Assembly: GCA_013360215.1 (NCBI GenBank)
Contig: JABWCP010000001.1
Location: 89,144-153,143 of the forward strand
Direction of reading: 5' to 3'
Source: a bacterium
Lineage (GTDB): Bacteria; CLD3; SB21
Length of the DNA: 64,000 bases
Below the pieces are notes generated by a model. The model saw only the letters and a program-made list of their open reading frames with translations. It had not been told where the DNA came from and made no database searches. Of the stretch, positions 5,986 through 64,000 are shown piece after piece. The position numbers and the translations under genes were made by a program. Position 1 is the stretch's first letter. Each line of letters opens with the position of its first letter.

Positions 5986-7149
5986 GCATTTCGTTTAGCT
6001 AATCGTTTTGAAGAATTGCCCGTACATGCTTTTGCCGAGGTGGATCGCCTCAAACGCGAAGCCATTGCCCAAGGAAAAGACGTTATAGATTTGGGTGTAG
6101 GTGACCCCGATGTTCCCACCCCACAACCTATCATAGATGCTTGCACCAAGGCGCTACAAAAACCGGCCAACCACCGATACCCCTACCAAGCCGGTTCAAT
6201 GCGTTTTAGGGAAAGTGTTTCGGCTTTTATGAAAAGACGATACGATGTAACGGTAGATCCTCAACGCAATATCGTTCCTTTGATCGGTTCCAAAGAAGGT
6301 ATAGCCCATTTTCCGATCGCTTTTGTAAATCCGGGTGAAACCGTCATTGCACCGGATCCTGGTTATCCGGCCTATGTGACGGGAACTAAATTAGCCGGCG
6401 GCGTGCTCCATTCGATACCGTTATTAGCAAAAAATCGTTTTCTGATGCCGCTCAATGAAATCCCTGCCGATGTCGTAAAACGTGCACGATTGATGTTTTT
6501 CAATTATCCCAACAACCCGACTACCGGTTGGGCGGATCGAAGTGATTTCGAATCCATCGCTCAGTTCTGTAAAACTAACGACATTATTGCTGCTCATGAC
6601 GCGGCATATCAGGAACTTTTCTTCGAAGAAGCACCACCCAGTCTGATGCAAACAACATGCGGTCTTGACGGCGGCATCGAATTCCATTCGCTGTCTAAAA
6701 CTTTTAACATGACCGGATGGCGCGTCGGATTTGCCGTTGGCGAACCTTCCTTGATCGCCGGACTGTCCAGACTCAAAGCCAACATAGATACCGGTTTATT
6801 CTTAGCGTTACAAGAGGCGGCCGCGTTTGCATTGGATCATTGCGAAGAATTTACGAAACCTATGATCGAATTATATAGACGCCGTAAAGATACGGTAGTG
6901 CAAGGGCTCAATGCGGCCGGATTCAAAAGTCATCATGGCAAAGCAACCATTTACGTATGGACAGAAGTGCCCGGCGGTTCAGATTCAATGACCTTTACTA
7001 AACAATTATTGGATAAAACAGGAGTCGTTGTAACACCCGGTTCGGCGCTCGGTCAGTCCAGCGGATCGTACTTTCGCATTGCGCTGACACAGTCCGAAGA
7101 ACGTCTCTCGGAAGCCGTGCGGCGTATGGCGGCTTTTGCTAAAGCGTAA
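5986..7149 (+). CDS. Class I pyridoxal-phosphate-dependent aminotransferase (LL-diaminopimelate/aspartate aminotransferase-like)
   Basis: Start chosen at MAFRLANRFEELPVHAF. Fold-type I aminotransferase motifs (DLGVGDPD, GSKEGIAH, NYPNNPTG, SLSKTFNMTGWRVG with the PLP-binding Lys). Confidence 0.7.
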   Translation, partial: AFRLANRFEELPVHAFAEVDRLKREAIAQGKDVIDLGVGDPDVPTPQPIIDACTKALQKPANHRYPYQAGSMRFRESVSAFMKRRYDVTVDPQRNIVPLIGSKEGIAHFPIAFVNPGETVIAPDPGYPAYVTGTKLAGGVLHSIPLLAKNRFLMPLNEIPADVVKRARLMFFNYPNNPTTGWADRSDFESIAQFCKTNDIIAAHDAAYQELFFEEAPPSLMQTTCGLDGGIEFHSLSKTFNMTGWRVGFAVGEPSLIAGLSRLKANIDTGLFLALQEAAAFALDHCEEFTKPMIELYRRRKDTVVQGLNAAGFKSHHGKATIYVWTEVPGGSDSMTFTKQLLDKTGVVVTPGSALGQSSGSYFRIALTQSEERLSEAVRRMAAFAKA

Positions 7150-7150
7150 C

Positions 7151-7525
7151 ATGAAAAATAACGATAAAATCCGACTCGTCAATCTGATCATTTATGCTCA
7201 TCATGGTGCACATGAAGAGGAGCGGCGCTTAGGTCAGCGCTTTGAAATCGATGTTGAACTTGGACTTGATTTCCAACCGGCGGCGCTCGCCGATGATTTG
7301 CATCTGAGCGTGGACTACGGCACCGTGTATCAGCGCATTCACACTGTCGTCACGGAAAAGAAATATTACCTGATTGAGGCGGTCGCTGAAAATATCGCGC
7401 AGCGACTACTTAATGATTTCCCGATACAGGTCGTCACAGTCTGTGTCCGTAAACCGAGTGTTCCCATTCACGGTTCCTTGGATCATGTGGAAGTTGAAAT
7501 CACCCGTGAAAGAAAAACCACATGA
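7151..7525 (+). CDS. folB: Dihydroneopterin aldolase
   Basis: IRLVNLIIYAHHGAHEEERRLGQRFEIDVEL is the FolB signature. Size is about 120 aa. Confidence 0.8.
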   Translation: MKNNDKIRLVNLIIYAHHGAHEEERRLGQRFEIDVELGLDFQPAALADDLHLSVDYGTVYQRIHTVVTEKKYYLIEAVAENIAQRLLNDFPIQVVTVCVRKPSVPIHGSLDHVEVEITRERKTT

Positions 7526-8064
7526 AAAGTAAAGTACTGCTCAGCTTAGGCTCCAACATAGGTGATCGGATGCAGCATCTTCGCGAAGCTGTTGATCTAA
7601 TGAGCCGATTTGCCGGCATTACACAGATCGCATCCATTTATGAAACCGAGCCGGTTAGCCCGATCATGCAGGATAATTATTACAATACGGCTATGATCAT
7701 TGATACGGACTTAGATGCTCAGAGCCTCATGAAAAAACTATTAGACGTAGAAAAATCATTAGGTCGTGAAAGAACGATTCCCGGGAACGCACGCACGATT
7801 GATTTGGATATTATATTGTTTGGTGATCTCATTATGAATACGTCGGATACGGTCATCCCCCATCCGCGTTTTGCAGAGCGAAATTTTGTTCTCGTACCGT
7901 CGGCCGAAATTGCCGGGAATTGGCTTTGCCCGGTTCGGCACCTCACGATACAGGAAATTCTAAATCTATCCCGTGATACGCATCACGTACAATGCGCCGT
8001 TTCGCGGGACAATCCCGACGCCATCTTTCACTTATTACCGATGGGAGACGCGATTGGCCACTGA
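7522..8064 (+). CDS. folK: 2-amino-4-hydroxy-6-hydroxymethyldihydropteridine pyrophosphokinase (HPPK)
   Basis: LSLGSNIGDR, IDLDIILFGD and PHPRFAERNFVLVP motifs. Overlaps the folB stop (ATGA coupling). Confidence 0.85.
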   Translation: MKSKVLLSLGSNIGDRMQHLREAVDLMSRFAGITQIASIYETEPVSPIMQDNYYNTAMIIDTDLDAQSLMKKLLDVEKSLGRERTIPGNARTIDLDIILFGDLIMNTSDTVIPHPRFAERNFVLVPSAEIAGNWLCPVRHLTIQEILNLSRDTHHVQCAVSRDNPDAIFHLLPMGDAIGH

Positions 8065-8710
8065 CGAAAAAATACGATTTATCGCCATAGAAGGCGTCCT
8101 TAAGCCGGAAAACACCGCGCTCGCACGCAATCTTTCCCAGATGGCCAATGCCCGACCCATTTTGGAAGCCGAATTTCTTTCTCCATTGGTTAACATTCAC
8201 AGCACCGATCCCAAAGATATGGCCTTCAAAAAGCATATGCTGCACCTTATGGATCGGTATAAAATGCTCAAACAGATTCATCAGACTGAGATTTTTTTTG
8301 AACAGGTCATTTGCGATTATCTTTTTTATGCCGATCGCGTATATGCGAACCTGAAACTTGATAACGAAGATATGCATCTGTACGATACGATGATGAATGT
8401 GATGGAACGCGAATTACCCATACCGGATCTGGTCATCTATCTTCAGAGTAATATTGACACCGTGATGGAAAAAATTCACACCCGGCATGCACTCGGTAAT
8501 GCAAGCAAAGAACGGCAACGCATGGACGAAGCCTACATCGCAGCGCTCAACGAAGAGTTCAATCAATTTTTTCTTTATTACCGTTGGTCACCGGTGCTTA
8601 TTGTTAACGCCAATCAATTAGACCCGGAAAATACCCATCACCTCGAAGATCTTTACCAACGTTTAGATACGCGCTTATCCGGCGTAGTTTACTATAATCC
8701 GCCGGCCTGA
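8054..8710 (+). CDS. Deoxynucleoside-kinase-fold protein with a degenerate P-loop
   Basis: Matches the dNK/dCK/dGK family outside the P-loop (RFIAIEG..., FYADRVYANL, lid-like KERQRMDEAY). The canonical GxGK(S/T) is replaced by GVLKPENT. Start is uncertain (TTG near 8054; the ORF track's 7973 start lies inside folK). Confidence 0.5.
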   Translation: MATDEKIRFIAIEGVLKPENTALARNLSQMANARPILEAEFLSPLVNIHSTDPKDMAFKKHMLHLMDRYKMLKQIHQTEIFFEQVICDYLFYADRVYANLKLDNEDMHLYDTMMNVMERELPIPDLVIYLQSNIDTVMEKIHTRHALGNASKERQRMDEAYIAALNEEFNQFFLYYRWSPVLIVNANQLDPENTHHLEDLYQRLDTRLSGVVYYNPPA

Positions 8711-8729
8711 ATCCCCGAAAGGACGGATC

Positions 8730-9785
8730 ATGCGTGCCCCATCATCATTGCGCGATAACCTCCGATCACTTGTCCAAGAAGGAACACTGTATAAACAAAC
8801 CGACGACGGTCGTGTGCAATGTTACGCGTGCGGTCATCGCTGCATCATCGGCGAAGGGCGCGATGGTATTTGCAAAGTTCGCTTCAACCGCAATAATAAA
8901 TTATGGGTTCCCCACGGATATACGGCCGGCATACAACTTGATCCCGTCGAAAAAAAACCATTCTTTCACGTGTTTCCCGGCAGCACAGCGATGAGTTTTG
9001 GAATGTTAGGATGCGATCTGCACTGCGCGTATTGCCAAAACTGGATCACATCCCAAGCCTTGCAAGACCCATACGCCGGCGTACCGCCCCGTCTTATCAC
9101 CGCCGCCGAATTGGCCCAACATGCATCGGATCATGGCGCGCGCCTTCTCACAAGTACCTATAATGAACCGCTCATCACCGCCGAATGGGCGGTGCGCGTC
9201 TTTGAAGAAGGACAACGCCTAGGTTTATACGGTGCCTTTGTATCCAATGGCAATGCAACACCGGAAGTTTTAACTTTTCTGCGTCCGTATGTTTCTATGT
9301 ACAAAGTAGATCTCAAAAGTTTTAACGACAAAAATTATCGGAAGCTCGGTACCACGTTAAAAAATGTAACCGACAGCATAGAAAAAATTCATGCCATGGG
9401 TTTTTGGTTGGAAATCGTAACCCTGATCGTTCCGGGCTTTAATGATTCGGATGCCGAACTGCAGGGCATGGCATCATTTATAAAAAAAATTTCATCCGAT
9501 ATACCCTGGCATGTCACGGCGTTTCATCCTGACTACAAGATGACCGATCCGGATGAAACCGATGCCGATACATTAGCACGCGCAGCACATATCGGTAAAA
9601 ACGAAGGCCTGCATTTTGTATATACCGGAAATCGCCCGGGTGAACTGCGTGATATGGAAAACACGTACTGCCCGGGATGCAAAGCATTGTTAGTAAAACG
9701 CCACGGTTATCGCATTCAGCAAAATAGGATTATCCACGGAAAATGCCCGAATTGCGATCGGAAAATTCCCGGCTATTGGTCCTAA
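8730..9785 (+). CDS. Radical SAM enzyme of the AmmeMemoRadiSam / PFL-activating-enzyme-like type
   Basis: CDLHCAYCQNW radical-SAM cluster motif. Upstream Cys-rich N-terminus (CYACGHRC...C). Overall similarity to AmmeMemoRadiSam-system radical SAM proteins. Confidence 0.75.
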   Translation: MRAPSSLRDNLRSLVQEGTLYKQTDDGRVQCYACGHRCIIGEGRDGICKVRFNRNNKLWVPHGYTAGIQLDPVEKKPFFHVFPGSTAMSFGMLGCDLHCAYCQNWITSQALQDPYAGVPPRLITAAELAQHASDHGARLLTSTYNEPLITAEWAVRVFEEGQRLGLYGAFVSNGNATPEVLTFLRPYVSMYKVDLKSFNDKNYRKLGTTLKNVTDSIEKIHAMGFWLEIVTLIVPGFNDSDAELQGMASFIKKISSDIPWHVTAFHPDYKMTDPDETDADTLARAAHIGKNEGLHFVYTGNRPGELRDMENTYCPGCKALLVKRHGYRIQQNRIIHGKCPNCDRKIPGYWS

Positions 9786-47613: not shown

Positions 47614-49437
47614 TTAATCTTTTTTCTTACGCTCTTCACGACGACGATCCGATTCTTTGAGTACTTTTTTACGAAGACGGAATGTTTTAGGCGTAATTTC
47701 AACCAATTCGTCATCATTAATGAACTCAATATAATCTTCCAAACTCATCGGACGCACCGGTTCCAATCGAACCGCATCATCCGAACCGGAAGCACGCATG
47801 TTGGTCAGTTTTTTTCCTTTTCCAACATTCACGACAAGATCGTTTTCACGGGAATGTTTACCGATGATCATTCCTTCGTAAACCGGTGTCTGAGGATCCA
47901 CGATCAATTCACCGCGTTCCTGCAAACCAAACAATGCATACGCTACGGTTTCCGTTTGTTCCATCGAGATCAAAACACCGTTTAAGCGTCCGCCGATATC
48001 GCCTTTGTACGGCGCGTAGTCGTGAAAAATATGATTGAGTACGCCGGTTCCGCGGGTATCGGTGAGAAATTCACCGCGATATCCGATCAATCCGCGCGCC
48101 GGAATAACAAATTCGATTTTCACCTGTTTATTGTCCAAGTGAATCAGGTTTTTCATCTCGGCTTTACGCTTACCCAATTTTTCGATCACGACACCCATAT
48201 ACTCTTCTGGTACGTCAATGATCAGATATTCCATCGGCTCCAGTAATTGGCCGTCGACGCGTTTCATGATCACTTCGGGACGCGACACTTGAAATTCAAA
48301 TCCTTCACGCCGCATATTTTCGATAAGAATACAAAGGTGCAGTTCACCGCGTCCGGATACTTTGAACGTATCCATACTTTCGGTATCTTCGACGCGCAAT
48401 GCGAGATTCGACAATAATTCTTTATACAAACGTTCGCGTAAATGGCGTGACGTTACAAATTTTCCGTCTTGCCCTGCGAAGGGTGAATTATTGACGATAA
48501 AATTCATAGCAATCGTAGGTTCATCCACGTGTATCGGTTCCAGTGCTTCCGGATTATTGTAATCCGCGATCGTTTCACCGATCTGAATTTCCTCCATACC
48601 CGCCATGGCTACGATTTCACCGGAGTAGGCGCTTTCCGTTTCCGTACGTTTCAAGCCTTCATAGGCGAAAAGCTTCACCACACGGCTATTGTAGCGCGTA
48701 CCGTCTTTTTTCATAACGGCCACATTTTGGCCGGTTTTGATTTCGCCCCGCTGAATGCGACCGATAGCAATCCGTCCGAGATAATCGGAATAGTCTATAT
48801 TGGCTACCAGCATTTGAAACGCCGCTTCCCGTTCGCCCGGCGGACTCGGGATACGTTCGAGGATCGTATCGAACAGGGGCACCATGTCGCTATTGGCCTG
48901 ATCAATTTCATACTGCGCAAATCCCATCTTAGCTGACGCGTAGATGGTGGCGAAGTCCAACTGCTCGTCGTTGGCGTTGAGTTCGAGAAAAAGATTAAAT
49001 ACTTCGTCGAGCACTTCGTGCGGCCGCGCACCAGGGCGGTCAATTTTATTGATCACGACGATCGGTGTACAGTTGGAAGCGAGAGCTTTTTTGAGTACAA
49101 ATTTGGTTTGCGGCATAGGCCCGTCAAACGCATCCACTAGTAGCAATACGCCATCCACCATGGTCATGATACGTTCCACTTCACCGCCAAAGTCGGCGTG
49201 ACCGGGTGTATCCACGATATTGATTTTTGCGCCTTTGTAACGAATCGACGTGTTTTTAGCTAAAATGGTAATGCCGCGTTCACGTTCGAGATCGTTGGAG
49301 TCCATCACGCGTTCGGCGACCTGTTGATTTTCGCGAAACGTGCCGCTTTGGCGCAAGAGCTGATCCACCAAGGTTGTTTTGCCGTGATCAACGTGGGCTA
49401 TGATAGCTACATTGCGAATGTCCGTTCGGCGCTTCAT
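47614..49437 (-). CDS. typA: Translational GTPase TypA/BipA
   Basis: IRNVAIIAHVDHGKTTL and later EF-G-like domains. Start placed at MKRRTDIRN; an in-frame upstream ATG at 49485 would add a 16-aa extension. Confidence 0.85.
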   Translation of the reverse strand: MKRRTDIRNVAIIAHVDHGKTTLVDQLLRQSGTFRENQQVAERVMDSNDLERERGITILAKNTSIRYKGAKINIVDTPGHADFGGEVERIMTMVDGVLLLVDAFDGPMPQTKFVLKKALASNCTPIVVINKIDRPGARPHEVLDEVFNLFLELNANDEQLDFATIYASAKMGFAQYEIDQANSDMVPLFDTILERIPSPPGEREAAFQMLVANIDYSDYLGRIAIGRIQRGEIKTGQNVAVMKKDGTRYNSRVVKLFAYEGLKRTETESAYSGEIVAMAGMEEIQIGETIADYNNPEALEPIHVDEPTIAMNFIVNNSPFAGQDGKFVTSRHLRERLYKELLSNLALRVEDTESMDTFKVSGRGELHLCILIENMRREGFEFQVSRPEVIMKRVDGQLLEPMEYLIIDVPEEYMGVVIEKLGKRKAEMKNLIHLDNKQVKIEFVIPARGLIGYRGEFLTDTRGTGVLNHIFHDYAPYKGDIGGRLNGVLISMEQTETVAYALFGLQERGELIVDPQTPVYEGMIIGKHSRENDLVVNVGKGKKLTNMRASGSDDAVRLEPVRPMSLEDYIEFINDDELVEITPKTFRLRKKVLKESDRRREERKKKD

Positions 49438-49667
49438 GGAAGGGGTACTCCCCTTTTTTTCTTCAGAAATCACATCTTCGATCATAAGACTCCAGGATAT
49501 TTATCAAAAACAAAAACAATAAATTACGTGTTTATTCAAAGGCGCGGCAATATATTTATCCGACCCTGCAAAAACAAGTACTTTTATAGCAAAATCCAAT
49601 CATTACGAATGCACGGCAAAACTTTTAAATTAGATTAGAATCTTTTTATCCTTTTTTTATTTTTATG

Positions 49668-49708
49668 TGCTACACTGTAGCATAACGTGCGCATTTAATG
49701 CCGCACGT
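49668..49708. promoter_or_regulatory. Perfect 15-bp palindrome TGCTACA-C-TGTAGCA followed by a 7-bp inverted repeat (ACGTGCG-10 nt-CGCACGT) in the divergent typA / lipid-cluster promoter region
   Basis: Read directly from the sequence, within a 440-nt AT-rich intergenic region. Confidence 0.4.
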
Positions 49709-49928
49709 ACCGTGGCGGCGCTTTTAAGTCGCACATCAAATTGTTTATGTATTAGTATGTAAAATAAAACAAATAATTTTTAAAATATTATATAACAATC
49801 AAATATGGCTAATAAATACTAATAAAATAGTACTATTTTCTACTTGACAATAGTTTTATTTTGTTTAACATTTAGTTGTCCATATTAAACATTTTAACGC
49901 TACTATTTAAACGCGAGGAAGATGTCGT

Positions 49929-50675
49929 ATGGAAATTGCGATTTTTTTTGCAGGACATTGGTTCACGTCCTTGTTTTCCCAAAGTTTCTTTTTACACCGT
50001 TATTCGGCTCACAAGATGTTTAATATGAACGCGTTTTGGGAAAGGTTCTTTTATTTTTTCACGTTTCTGACGCAAGGATCGTCGTTTCTCAACCCGCGTG
50101 CATACGCCGTGATGCATCGAATGCACCACGCTTTCAGTGATACCGAAAAAGATCCGCATTCACCGCATTTTTTTAAGGATGTGTTTCGCCTGATGTGGCA
50201 TACCAAAAAAGTTTATTTTGACCTGTTGACGGGAAAAACTATTCCCGAACAACAATTTGACGGCGATACGCCGCGCTGGGGTTGGCTTGATGCGATGTCC
50301 AATGCCTGGGTCGTGCGCGTCGCGTGGGGTGTAGGATACTTTATTTTTTATTATTTTTTCGTCCCGGAAGGATATACCTGGCTATACGCCCTTTTACCAC
50401 TGCATTTTTTGATGGGACCGATACACGGCGCGATTGTCAACTGGTGCGGACATAAGTACGGATATGCTAATTTTGACAATCGTGATAAATCGAAAAATTC
50501 ACTCGTCTGGGACTTTATGTTGCTGGGCGAATTATTTCAAAATAATCATCATAAATACCCTAACCGGCCTAATTTTGCCGTGCGTTGGTTCGAATTGGAT
50601 CCGACCTATCCGATTATGAAGGTTTTGGATTGGATGCGAATCATACGTATACGCCGCAAATCCAACGCCGCGTAG
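49929..50675 (+). CDS. Membrane fatty-acid (acyl-lipid/acyl-CoA) desaturase-like protein
   Basis: GAGGAAG RBS. Three His boxes (HRYSAH, HRMHHAFSDTEKDPHSP, NNHHKYP) typical of Delta9-type membrane desaturases. Shorter (248 aa) than typical DesC. Confidence 0.6.
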   Translation: MEIAIFFAGHWFTSLFSQSFFLHRYSAHKMFNMNAFWERFFYFFTFLTQGSSFLNPRAYAVMHRMHHAFSDTEKDPHSPHFFKDVFRLMWHTKKVYFDLLTGKTIPEQQFDGDTPRWGWLDAMSNAWVVRVAWGVGYFIFYYFFVPEGYTWLYALLPLHFLMGPIHGAIVNWCGHKYGYANFDNRDKSKNSLVWDFMLLGELFQNNHHKYPNRPNFAVRWFELDPTYPIMKVLDWMRIIRIRRKSNAA

Positions 50676-60815: not shown

Positions 60816-62159
60816 TTATAATAGATTACTGGCCAATTCTGCCAAGGCGCTGCGCTCCCCTTTGAGCAAATTGACATGCGCAAACAGATCCTGACCTTTC
60901 ATGCGATCCACCAGATACGCCAAACCATTGGACTGTGTATCAAGATACGGTGAATCAATTTGATAAATATCGCCGACAAATACCATTTTAGCACCTTCGC
61001 CCGCACGGGTGATAATGGTTTTTATTTCATGCGGCGTCAGGTTTTGCGCTTCATCTACGATAAAAAATATTTTATCCAGGCTCCGCCCGCGGATATAAGC
61101 CAGCGGCGCAATGACCAATTTTTCGCGCTCAAGCATTTCAGCAATGCGTGTCACTTCGGTGCTTTCCTGAGAAAATTTATTTTTTATCACGGCTAGATTA
61201 TCCCACAGCGGTTGCATATACGGATCAAGTTTTTCATGGACATCGCCCGGCAGGTATCCGATATCCCGATTACTGAGCGGTACGACCGGTCGTGCTAAGT
61301 ATATTTGACTGTAAAGCTGTCTTTGCTGCAGTGCGGCGGCCAGCGCCAGCAGCGTTTTGCCCGTACCGGCTTTACCCGTCAGCGTAACCACCGCAACCTC
61401 CGGGCGCATGAGCGCATCCAATGCAAACACCTGCTCCGCATTGCGGGGTTCGATGCCATACGCTCGTTTTTTCTCGATACGTTCCAAACCCTGCGCCGAT
61501 GGATTATAGTGTGTGAGTACGCTGCTGCTGTGATTTTTGAGAATATAGTATTCATTAGCTACCGGTTTACGCGGCAGTTTGAGATCATCGGCCGGGACGG
61601 CCTCAGTCTGTTCATAAAATCTGCGGATCACCTCGGTATTAAAATTTTCATGCGTCTGAATGCCCGTGTACAGTTCGTCCACGTTGCGAATTTTCCCGGT
61701 CTCATAATCCTCCGCCGGAATGCCAAGCGATTTGGCTTTCATCCGGAGATTGATGTCTTTGCTGATGATGATGACTTCGCGATCCGTACGCTTATGCCGT
61801 AGCTGATCCGCCAGCGCCAAAATTCGGTGATCGGGTTTATTGGTCGTAAAGGCATTATACACGAGCTCCGAGTGCGCCTCACCGACTTCGACAAATAAAC
61901 GCCCGTGGCCTTTTTTTAATTGAAGGCCTTTATTGAATAATTGTGCCTTGGATAACTTATCCATCTCGCGGATAAATTCGCGCGCCTGAAAATTGATCAG
62001 ATCACTACCTTTTTTGAATTGATCAATTTCTTCCAGTACGACGATGGGTATCACGACATCGTGCTCTTTAAAATTATAAATGCACGTGTAGTCATACAGG
62101 ATCACATTGGTGTCGAGGATAAAAAGTTTCGTTTCGGGCTTGGTTTTAGAATTCGGCAT
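60816..62159 (-). CDS. PhoH2-type protein (N-terminal PIN domain fused to a PhoH-like ATPase)
   Basis: PIN acidic residues (FILDTNV...LEEID). Walker A GKAGTGKT. Size is about 447 aa. Confidence 0.8.
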   Translation of the reverse strand: MPNSKTKPETKLFILDTNVILYDYTCIYNFKEHDVVIPIVVLEEIDQFKKGSDLINFQAREFIREMDKLSKAQLFNKGLQLKKGHGRLFVEVGEAHSELVYNAFTTNKPDHRILALADQLRHKRTDREVIIISKDINLRMKAKSLGIPAEDYETGKIRNVDELYTGIQTHENFNTEVIRRFYEQTEAVPADDLKLPRKPVANEYYILKNHSSSVLTHYNPSAQGLERIEKKRAYGIEPRNAEQVFALDALMRPEVAVVTLTGKAGTGKTLLALAAALQQRQLYSQIYLARPVVPLSNRDIGYLPGDVHEKLDPYMQPLWDNLAVIKNKFSQESTEVTRIAEMLEREKLVIAPLAYIRGRSLDKIFFIVDEAQNLTPHEIKTIITRAGEGAKMVFVGDIYQIDSPYLDTQSNGLAYLVDRMKGQDLFAHVNLLKGERSALAELASNLL

Positions 62160-62171
62160 AGGCTTCCTTGG

Positions 62172-63230
62172 TTAAGGGATCACGGAAGGAAGAATATCGT
62201 TGTGAATTATTTGGCGAACGGATGTCAGGACTTGATCGGATACGGTATAGTTGACATGAGGGTCGGCGGTTGCGATCACCACGATATCCAGCGCCGGTAC
62301 GACGTAGATCAACTGTCCGCCATAACCGAAGGCATAAGCCGCCGGATAATCCATAGCCTCATCCAACCACCACAGATGGCCATACGCGTGGTTATCATCC
62401 AAAACATCGGTAAAAGAAATATCCGGCCATAAATCTGAAAAAACACGCTGCCCGTCGTAACAACCACCGTCCAGATACGTCATACCGATCTTGGCCATAT
62501 CCCGTGCCCGCAGATATAAACCCGTACCGCCCAAAGGAATCCCCTGCGGATCGGCCTGCCAATGCATCGAATCAATTCCAAGCTTCGAAAAAAATTTATT
62601 CCTAGACCATGATATTAATTTATTATCGGTACGATCTGACAATATACCCGAGATAATATGCGGCACGGCCGAACTGTAGTTAAAAACACGCCCCGGCACG
62701 GTATCCATCGGGAGGTGTACTGCGAATGAAACATAATTCCCATACAAGCGATCGGCGACTTCATTCCACGCATATCCCGCAGACATCGTCAGGAGATGTT
62801 TCAATGTGATTTGCCGTGCACGGTTATCGCTGATATCTTCATAATATTTTGGGAAATACCGGCTGAGTTTATCGGAAACATTGTGGATGGTATGATCATA
62901 CAGCGCAACACCGGTCAAAGCACCGACGATGCTTTTGGTAACCGAACGTTGTTCAAAAAATGTTGCTGAATCCGCAGACTGAAAATATTTTTCAAACACC
63001 AAGCCGTTTCCCCGCACGACCAATAAAGCGTAGAGTGTTTCGATCGCGGATGCATGGCTGTTCCACACATTGACGCTTGTAGAATCCATTCTCGCCTCCG
63101 CAAAAGATATACGGCGCAAAGCGGCCGTTTCATCGCACGGCGGTTCCTGCAGGTCATTGCTACGACAGGAGGTAAATAATAGAAAAAATGTAAGAAGTTT
63201 CCTAAGTTCTCTCATACACCCTACGCTCAA
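62172..63230 (-). CDS. Beta-lactamase-family serine hydrolase
   Basis: Signal peptide. SxxK motif (SVTKS). Size and pattern of class C beta-lactamase/PBP4-like hydrolases. Confidence 0.7.
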   Translation of the reverse strand: MSVGCMRELRKLLTFFLLFTSCRSNDLQEPPCDETAALRRISFAEARMDSTSVNVWNSHASAIETLYALLVVRGNGLVFEKYFQSADSATFFEQRSVTKSIVGALTGVALYDHTIHNVSDKLSRYFPKYYEDISDNRARQITLKHLLTMSAGYAWNEVADRLYGNYVSFAVHLPMDTVPGRVFNYSSAVPHIISGILSDRTDNKLISWSRNKFFSKLGIDSMHWQADPQGIPLGGTGLYLRARDMAKIGMTYLDGGCYDGQRVFSDLWPDISFTDVLDDNHAYGHLWWLDEAMDYPAAYAFGYGGQLIYVVPALDIVVIATADPHVNYTVSDQVLTSVRQIIHNDILPSVIP

Positions 63231-63253
63231 ACATTAAAATTCACGTTGAATTT

Positions 63254-64000
63254 CTATTTATCTAATAATTTTATGATAGCGTCAAGAAAATCAAAATAAT
63301 CTGGGTGTATATCAGAATACTTTAGTTCATCAAAAAGGGTATCTTTAAATTCATTCACAAATTCTTCAGAATCATCTTTACTTATATCATTTTGATTTAA
63401 CCAAAGTTTCAATGCGAATATTTTACCTTTTGAGTGATTACTAAATTCTTTTTTTTTCTTAAAACCCTTTTTTGAAATTAAATTTTCTAAGGTCTTTTGA
63501 AAGTATTCATCTTTTATAAAGTCCTCACTGGTAACGGCTTGAACCGTTTTGAATAATTCATCGTATCTTTTCCAAACTCCGTAGACTCTTTCCTTTTGAA
63601 ACTCCTTTTGTCTTGAAACAGCAGCCTCATCAGCATCGCTAATAATCAGACACTCTCGTCTTGCAAGTTCCATTAATGGTGTGATCATTTTTATTGATGA
63701 AACACCTTTTGCATGAGTAACACCAATTCCTTCAAAAAACTCTTTTTGAGTTTTGTGCGATTTACTACTTAGTGCAGTTTTAAATAATTTTTTGTCTTTC
63801 CAGCCTTCAAAAATAATATTCTTTTTTTTAAGAACCTCGTACACAGAAAACCCGAGTGCTCTATATATCAACTCTTCGTCTTTGAAGTTAGAATCGTTCG
63901 CAATACTTATATTGGTTACTTCATTTTCTTTTTTTACAATTAAATGCCTCTCAATGTTTTCATTATCTATCATAAAAATGGAGTGCGTTGATGCAAACAC
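63254..64000 (-). CDS. C-terminal 248 aa of a larger protein (N-terminus beyond the window) with a TOPRIM-like motif pair; possible OLD/GajA-like nuclease
   Basis: Open to the window edge. IIFEGWKDKK (conserved Glu) and CLIISDADEA (DxD) resemble the TOPRIM catalytic motifs. Encoded in a markedly AT-rich segment. Confidence 0.4.
   Translation of the reverse strand: MFASTHSIFMIDNENIERHLIVKKENEVTNISIANDSNFKDEELIYRALGFSVYEVLKKKNIIFEGWKDKKLFKTALSSKSHKTQKEFFEGIGVTHAKGVSSIKMITPLMELARRECLIISDADEAAVSRQKEFQKERVYGVWKRYDELFKTVQAVTSEDFIKDEYFQKTLENLISKKGFKKKKEFSNHSKGKIFALKLWLNQNDISKDDSEEFVNEFKDTLFDELKYSDIHPDYFDFLDAIIKLLDK

Follow-up and report, generated by a model that had tools for sequence, protein, structure and literature searches.

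The defining feature of Class 2 OLD nucleases is the helicase gene gajB, UvrD-like and located directly downstream. Class 1 OLDs, by definition, stand alone as single genes away from other defence genes (PMC10568477, PMC7049728); they have been little studied, and in 2023 it was still being asked whether they act as stand-alone defences (PMC10568477, PMC12392090). For Vc OLD and P2 Old, the mode of defence is abortive infection (PMC12392090, PMC12445682). Ts OLD degrades DNA (PMC7049728), Vc OLD nicks DNA and blocks ICP1 replication (PMC12392090), and P2 Old cuts tRNA anticodon stems (PMC12445682).

Here we analysed a 64,000-nucleotide stretch of bacterial DNA (the window) whose AT-rich end is the last 40% of one foreign gene, encoding an OLD-type, ATP-driven nuclease. 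We consider it probable that the gene, of which window positions 63254–64000 represent the 3' 40%, is a solitary (Class 1) OLD-family nuclease gene that some strains of this uncultured bacterium carry as a foreign single-gene cassette of 1,972 bp, and that it serves as a presumed stand-alone abortive-infection defence. The features of the locus that fall within the window are the following.

60816–62159, minus strand: PIN_4 and PhoH fusion ATPase, a core gene; the identical protein is found in strains without the OLD gene
62172–63215, minus strand: beta-lactamase-family lipoprotein of 347 aa (Pfam Beta-lactamase), a core gene outside the system, also present in strains without the OLD gene
63177–64000, no strand: in-window part of the AT-rich, strain-variable block, delimited by GC and by sister-strain comparison; its full extent would reach virtual position 65148
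63177–63253, minus strand: 77 nt 3' of the OLD stop codon, inside the variable block, with the lipoprotein 5' UTR and lipoprotein codons 1–13 (63177–63215)
63254–64000, minus strand: 3' part of the OLD-family gene, encoding residues 379–626 of 626 and including the stop codon; translation would start at virtual 65132–65134
63257–63514, minus strand: C-terminal bundle of four helices with invariant W578, K597 (63344–63346), F601 and Y613; AF2 pLDDT above 90
63515–63829, minus strand: TOPRIM nuclease domain, with E443 at 63806–63808, D447 at 63794–63796, D500 at 63635–63637, D502 at 63629–63631, T535 at 63530–63532 and E537 at 63524–63526
63830–64000, minus strand: last part of the ABC ATPase, followed by a conserved beta-hairpin linker, with H384 at 63983–63985; delimited by invariant alignment columns and the secondary structure of the model

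An earlier note on this DNA had described an abrupt AT-rich end, and the base composition agrees. GC is 0.300 at 63231–64000 compared with a window mean of 0.449, which makes this the minimum among all 770-nt stretches of the 64-kb window, ~5.6 sd below their mean (0.451, sd 0.027). The AT-rich run quoted in the note, ttttttttcttaaaac, is located at window position 63450. The block that stands out both in composition and in strain variability starts at 63177, not at 63231. The runner-up GC minimum of the window (0.338) is an intergenic spot at ~49450–50200, flanked by a typA/bipA-like GTPase gene (47614–49485, minus strand) and a desaturase-like gene (49929–50675, plus strand).

The sequence past the window edge was obtained from a public contig, L008 (Logan SRR17665590_282, 223 kb), retrieved through a look-up of the window's PhoH-like protein. 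The contig overlaps the window over 13,185 nt with 0 mismatches and adds 8.1 kb past position 64000; all sequence statements beyond that position rest on L008, not on the window. Sliding-window GC, which the note had suggested computing, is ~0.30 in L008 only over 6900–9000 and 0.44–0.54 on both sides, so the drop is limited to this interval and uniform AT-richness does not continue into the core genes. Bounded on both sides, from 63177 to virtual position 65148, the block therefore totals 1,972 bp, with a GC of 0.312 compared with 0.47–0.50 in the flanking genes. It is made up of 14 nt containing a GAGGGA ribosome-binding site, a 1,881-nt coding sequence and a further 77 nt. Lysine, glutamate, asparagine and isoleucine together account for 35% of the full OLD protein, versus 16–27% of the three neighbouring proteins.

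Within the window, the gene appears as a minus-strand ORF with its stop codon at 63254–63256 that is still open at position 64000. Its 248 residues include IIFEGWKDKK and CLIISDADEA, in agreement with the truncated gene running off the window that the note had recognized. The full gene corresponds to L008 7026–8906 and encodes a protein of 626 aa (P0035); with the contig extended in this way, as had been proposed, the full-length protein proved to have both an ABC ATPase and a TOPRIM nuclease fold. The same protein is already in NCBI (649 aa, NUN44177.1 / MCK6541951.1), labelled 'AAA family ATPase'. The start annotated there lies 23 codons farther upstream (L008 6957–7025, virtual 65135–65203), inside the terminator hairpin of the adjacent ribonucleotide reductase gene. 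The family alignment favours the methionine of the 626-aa form as the conserved start, and the GAGGGA ribosome-binding site precedes it. This start codon is preceded by just 14 nt of the block and lies ~17 nt past the terminator stem. A promoter scan for the OLD gene was uninformative, returning 6 sites compared with 8.1 expected and identifying none as a promoter. Since no promoter stands out and so little of the block precedes the start codon, the gene may be transcribed by read-through of the reductase terminator.

The 626-aa protein begins with an ABC ATPase that carries a large inserted domain, continues with a TOPRIM domain and ends in a helical bundle; the window covers it from the H-loop onward. 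We evaluated motif conservation using two family alignments (A1 and A2) and 52 relatives. Among these relatives, the Walker A motif GINESGKS (G30/K36), a signature-like motif RSDGxKR at residues 320–326, the Walker B motif LLLFDEPD (D351/E352) and the H-loop STHS (H384) are invariant or nearly so. Walker A, Walker B and H-loop, the ATPase hallmarks of the OLD family, are all present in the full protein, and the H-loop is the only one of them within the window. In the linker, residues H397, K402, E405, N416 and E420/E421 are conserved in the family alignments. The TOPRIM glutamate E443, within FEGWxDK, and the DxD pair D500/D502 are invariant across the subfamily, providing the conserved Glu and DxD of a C-terminal OLD-family TOPRIM domain; these are the very residues that the note had picked from the fragment. 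D447 (four residues after E443), T535 and K597 are likewise invariant and E537 is nearly so, with T535-x-E537-D538 among the conserved TOPRIM motifs in the 52 relatives.

In form, this acidic pattern matches the two-metal sets of Bp OLD (E400, E404, D455, D457, T506 and E508, plus K562; PMC6755086) and Ts OLD (E377, D381, D431, D433, S478 and E480; PMC7049728). We propose that E443, D500 and D502 would serve as metal-A ligands, and D447, T535 and E537 as metal-B ligands. K597 may be the counterpart of the catalytic K562 of Bp OLD. The one-to-one residue mapping onto Bp OLD and Ts OLD is a putative one, drawn from motif pattern and conservation rather than from residue-level superposition. As read from the sequence, the complete active-site repertoire of an ABC ATPase and a TOPRIM nuclease is intact in a dispensable, foreign and solitary gene.

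Profile searches placed the C-terminus in the OLD family. Pfam OLD-like_TOPRIM (PF20469) weakly matched residues 59–124 of the fragment (E 7.7e-4, 20.4–20.5 bits), ~3 bits short of the gathering score of 23.2, which this protein does not reach; the assignment is backed by the relatives and by fold comparison. PF20469 is matched by 16 of 21 subfamily C-termini, and no other Pfam family recurs there. Precomputed Pfam annotation lists AAA_15 and AAA_21 for the full protein, in addition to OLD-like_TOPRIM on the C-terminal fragment, and the homologues show the same set, with AAA_15 at 1e-21 to 4e-24. Among the PADLOC models, the fragment matched Old (2.6e-6) and GajA (1.1e-4). For the full protein, for which the note had advised the same comparison, the best model was Old (4.1e-31), also spanning the TOPRIM region (residues 331–559), followed by AriA on the ATPase part only (1.2e-27, residues 1–389), GajA models (1e-18 to 1e-16) and fused AriAB (3e-14). 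NCBIfam returned no match for the fragment and sub-threshold matches to the ATPase head only for the full protein. Similarly, phmmer with the full protein against the PDB gave weak ATPase matches only. A family profile searched against the PDB retrieved 6p74 (7.6e-13), GajA (~7e-12) and the retron Eco8 OLD (3e-6). A profile of the C-terminus only found no OLD or TOPRIM structure in the PDB, returning spurious designed helical repeats only, and the TOPRIM assignment therefore rests on the Pfam and PADLOC profiles together with the fold comparison.

The AF2 model of the full protein has a pLDDT of 89.3. In Foldseek, its top matches over the whole length were Ts OLD 6p74 (1.4e-15) and GajA structures (ranks 2–4), and Rad50 and SMC heads matched the ATPase part only. 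The best fold match of the window fragment was the C-terminal region of Burkholderia pseudomallei OLD (6NK8), with 153 residues aligned, extending beyond the 115-residue Toprim domain of that protein (PMC6755086). Similarity is remote to every characterised OLD protein, with 13–15% identity in structural alignments. An hhalign comparison to P2 Old aligned 91 columns in the ATPase C-lobe only (residues 315–406), from the signature motif to the H-loop.

Homologues at 41–50% identity occur in many phyla. A phmmer search of 1.84 billion cluster representatives with the fragment returned 546 matches at E <= 1e-3, of which 240 reached E <= 1e-30, with lengths of 620–650 aa in almost every case; these counts and the uniform size indicate a compact and well-defined clade. 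Full-length homologues are 626–650 aa, within a family range of 620–650 aa, and their N-termini match AAA_15 and AAA_21. In sequence, the C-terminus of the clade is too divergent for most OLD and GajA proteins to be retrieved by phmmer. Elsewhere, members of the clade are labelled 'predicted ATP-dependent endonuclease of OLD family' or 'ATP-dependent endonuclease'. A tblastn search of 50,697 phage records, including the P2 genome, gave one weak match and did not reach P2 Old at E <= 1e-5, and plasmids gave distant matches only (22–28% identity), suggesting that the clade is not common phage or plasmid cargo in these collections. The contexts of individual homologues are as follows.

L001 10001–11137: homologue P0003 on a 788-kb contig, 378 aa, N-terminally truncated and without Walker A
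L002: an SNase-like gene is adjacent, and a phage terminase large subunit is encoded 4 kb off (L002 13989–15476)
L003 (Saccharibacteria MAG): neighbours are two DNA methyltransferase genes and one for a serine recombinase (L003 63–3804)
L005 (Methylophilaceae MAG): beside a RES-Xre toxin-antitoxin pair (L005 9392–10304)
L007: adjoins a NucS-like gene
L013 (Mucilaginibacter): between glycosyltransferase and OppC genes
P0097 contig: between shikimate kinase and PheT genes

The truncated homologue on L001, which adjoins a PDDEXK_2 (Rpn-like) gene and a Gp49/HTH pair, is apparently a decayed copy. No UvrD-like or other large helicase lies beside the homologues on L001, L002–L007, L013 and the P0097 contig, and those on L002, L003, L005, L007, L013 and the P0097 contig likewise have no adjacent reverse transcriptase. 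In eight other contexts no ORF of at least 600 aa adjoins the gene, and the neighbours differ in every one. The restriction-modification, toxin-antitoxin, recombinase and terminase neighbours suggest that the clade sometimes travels in mobile or defence contexts. At 7 of 9 loci from unrelated phyla (L001, L002–L008 and L013), the homologue is AT-richer than both of its flanks, as in an Acidobacteria MAG with a GC of 0.44 for the homologue and 0.56–0.59 for the flanks. The gene thus appears to keep its low-GC signature wherever it lands.

On one side the block adjoins the terminator of a B12-dependent ribonucleotide reductase gene; on the other it gives way to the beta-lactamase-like lipoprotein gene at codon 14. 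In three sister-strain contigs (L009, L010 and L011) with flanks 96.7–99.3% identical to L008, L008 7012–8983 (1,972 bp) is replaced by 78 unrelated bp; these three stand for 4 of the 14 informative contigs. Across the informative contigs encoding the identical PhoH protein (n = 14), the OLD gene is present in 10 and absent from 4. The exact OLD protein was found in the same genomic context in 12 of 12 contigs. Six further contigs stop exactly at the block junction, which suggests mixed strains in the corresponding samples. Contig L012 ends at the position matching window 63176, and L015 ends ~290 nt past the OLD stop codon; breaks at or near the right junction are expected if carrier and non-carrier strains share samples (SRR17665588, SRR17665585). 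Horizontal acquisition, which the note had proposed on the grounds of the compositional break, is supported by a GC3 of 0.24 for the OLD gene versus 0.49–0.55 for three neighbouring genes, as well as by the presence or absence of the gene among strains that are 97–99% identical.

The left junction lies inside the T-tract of the strong reductase terminator hairpin (−25.8 kcal/mol, z −4.75). The right junction, at L008 8983/8984 (window 63177/63176), follows codon 13 of the lipoprotein gene, and the block consequently supplies a different signal-peptide start: MRELRKLLTFFLL in strains with the OLD gene and MIQKKIILTVLL in strains without it. A lipobox-like ...LFTSC lies just within the conserved flank. 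The 5' 250–500 nt of the lipoprotein gene (window ~62677–63176, L008 8984–9483) are unusually divergent between carriers and non-carriers, with 25 mismatches to L009 in the first 250 nt and ~4 per 250 nt beyond, and 8 plus 17 mismatches to L011 near the right junction and 0–1 beyond. Divergence is mildly raised in the left flank too. The hallmarks of integration were absent: a tRNA scan of the 21-kb extended locus found none, an Rfam scan of the same 21 kb gave no match at E <= 0.1, the called genes of L008 include no integrase- or transposase-type Pfam family, and searches for terminal inverted or direct repeats at the block ends yielded chance matches in AT-rich DNA only. Given these absences, the divergence of the right flank and the swapped signal-peptide start, we infer that homologous recombination, not site-specific integration, brought in the cassette as part of a longer tract whose donor was a more divergent relative. 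Alternatively, the right-flank divergence could reflect diversifying selection on the lipoprotein N-terminus.

Some suggestions of the earlier note did not survive the extension of the locus. It had raised the possibility that a defence island begins here, with any partner genes past the window, and had advised looking for a flanking tRNA or integrase. Instead, the block is one 1.97-kb gene with core genes at normal GC on both sides. The next genes in L008 are the B12-dependent ribonucleotide reductase and then sdhCAB-like (succinate dehydrogenase) genes, likewise of normal GC; there is no tRNA gene and, among the called genes, no integrase-type Pfam family. Core metabolic flanks of normal GC and the lack of tRNA genes and terminal repeats at the locus do not make a defence island, and a second gene would not fit into the block, where just 14 nt precede the coding sequence and 77 nt follow it. 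We also considered the PIN-PhoH ATPase, which lies two genes from the OLD gene, but rejected it as a partner because the identical protein occurs in strains without the OLD gene.

By these features the gene falls into Class 1, with no helicase, reverse transcriptase or separate TOPRIM partner adjacent to it. Thermus scotoductus OLD (6P74, Class 1) is alike in being a single gene with the order ABC ATPase with insert, then TOPRIM. It ranks first in the sequence-profile and fold comparisons alike (E values as given above), and in a comparison of patterns its ligand set is of the same type (E, an acidic residue four positions on, DxD and S/T-x-E; PMC7049728). Bp OLD (6NK8) and Gabija GajA, both Class 2, share 14% identity with the protein and differ by gajB, which is found neither here nor beside the homologues; the gene downstream of the OLD gene is that of the 347-aa lipoprotein. 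A Class 3 (retron) arrangement is not seen either, with no reverse-transcriptase Pfam among the L008 genes and no Rfam match. P2 Old and Vc OLD are likewise solitary ATPase-TOPRIM genes on variable or mobile DNA, and Old is the best PADLOC model here; the gene described here differs in lying outside any recognisable prophage, and its likeness to P2 Old was confined to the hhalign segment at residues 315–406, with no tblastn match at E <= 1e-5. PARIS also pairs an ATPase with a TOPRIM nuclease, and the ABC ATPase resembles AriA, but PARIS consists of two proteins, AriA and AriB, as opposed to the single polypeptide here, and the fused AriAB model scores far below Old.

These comparisons bear on what else the gene could be. 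One alternative, that the gene encodes a Class 2 GajA of the Gabija type or opens a multi-gene defence island whose partners lie past the window, would fit the GajA matches in PADLOC, the GajA structures at ranks 2–4 in Foldseek and the best fold match of the fragment, which is the C-terminal region of a Class 2 OLD. We nevertheless find this very improbable: Old outscores every GajA model, a UvrD-like gene lies beside none of the homologues examined, and L008 continues beyond the window with ribonucleotide reductase and succinate dehydrogenase genes at normal GC, the AT-rich block ending 14 nt upstream of the OLD start. Thus, of the note's two suggestions, an OLD-family TOPRIM domain holds, with Old as the best PADLOC model, and Gabija GajA does not, since no GajB-like helicase occurs here or in eight other contexts. 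There is a small chance that the protein is a fused, PARIS-like (Class 4, AriA-AriB) system in which the ATPase senses a phage anti-restriction protein and releases a TOPRIM tRNase, considering the AriA match at 1.2e-27, the fused AriAB match at 3e-14, and the ability of the OLD-type TOPRIM domains of P2 Old and AriB to cut tRNA (PMC12445682, PMC12409363). The AriA match, however, covers the generic ABC ATPase part, whereas Old scores higher (4.1e-31) and spans the TOPRIM region, and OLD-like_TOPRIM is the only recurrent Pfam family on the C-terminus.

A role outside defence, either as a DNA-repair or recombination ABC ATPase-nuclease (RecF, SbcC or Rad50-like) or as a selfish addiction gene whose loss is toxic, strikes us as rather unlikely. 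The ATPase head does resemble Rad50, SMC and RecF, and the Class 1 OLD of E. coli, YbjD, is chromosomal with an unclear natural role (PMC13261556). Against such a role, the composition is foreign and the gene is dispensable, as near-identical strains lack it; moreover, homologues are scattered over unrelated phyla, AT-richer than their flanks at most loci and sometimes next to restriction-modification, toxin-antitoxin, recombinase or terminase genes, a scatter and a set of contexts typical of defence and mobile genes, not of core repair genes. We give hardly any weight to the gene being a decaying, non-functional remnant of a horizontally acquired one. The truncated L001 homologue without Walker A and the promoter scan might hint at decay, but here the ORF is full length (626 aa, compared with 620–650 aa for the family), every invariant motif is kept, and the identical protein is encoded on 12 contigs. 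Finally, it is conceivable, if on balance unlikely, that the clade forms a separate OLD lineage, solitary like Class 1 and similar to Class 2 in its catalytic C-terminal region (T-x-E, helical domain and conserved Lys); such a lineage would have its own trigger and substrate, for example tRNA, and need no GajB-type partner.

If the gene is a stand-alone abortive-infection defence, as the analogy with P2 Old, Vc OLD and Ts OLD suggests, the 626-aa protein would have an anti-phage function exerted in steps. An ATPase dimer would sense an infection cue, and ATP binding or hydrolysis would license the TOPRIM site for two-metal cleavage of nucleic acid. The target could be DNA, nicked or degraded as by Vc OLD and Ts OLD, or else tRNA anticodon stems, as for P2 Old. 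Cleavage would halt phage replication at the expense of the infected cell.

Together, these data add an uncharacterised and phylogenetically widespread clade to the solitary OLD nucleases. The system is of a known kind, and what is new is the member from this clade, not a new kind of system. The locus also provides a natural comparison, in that strains 97–99% identical in the flanks differ by one 2-kb gene, and this strain contrast, combined with the contig breaks at or near the junction, might serve to examine whether gene carriage follows phage pressure.
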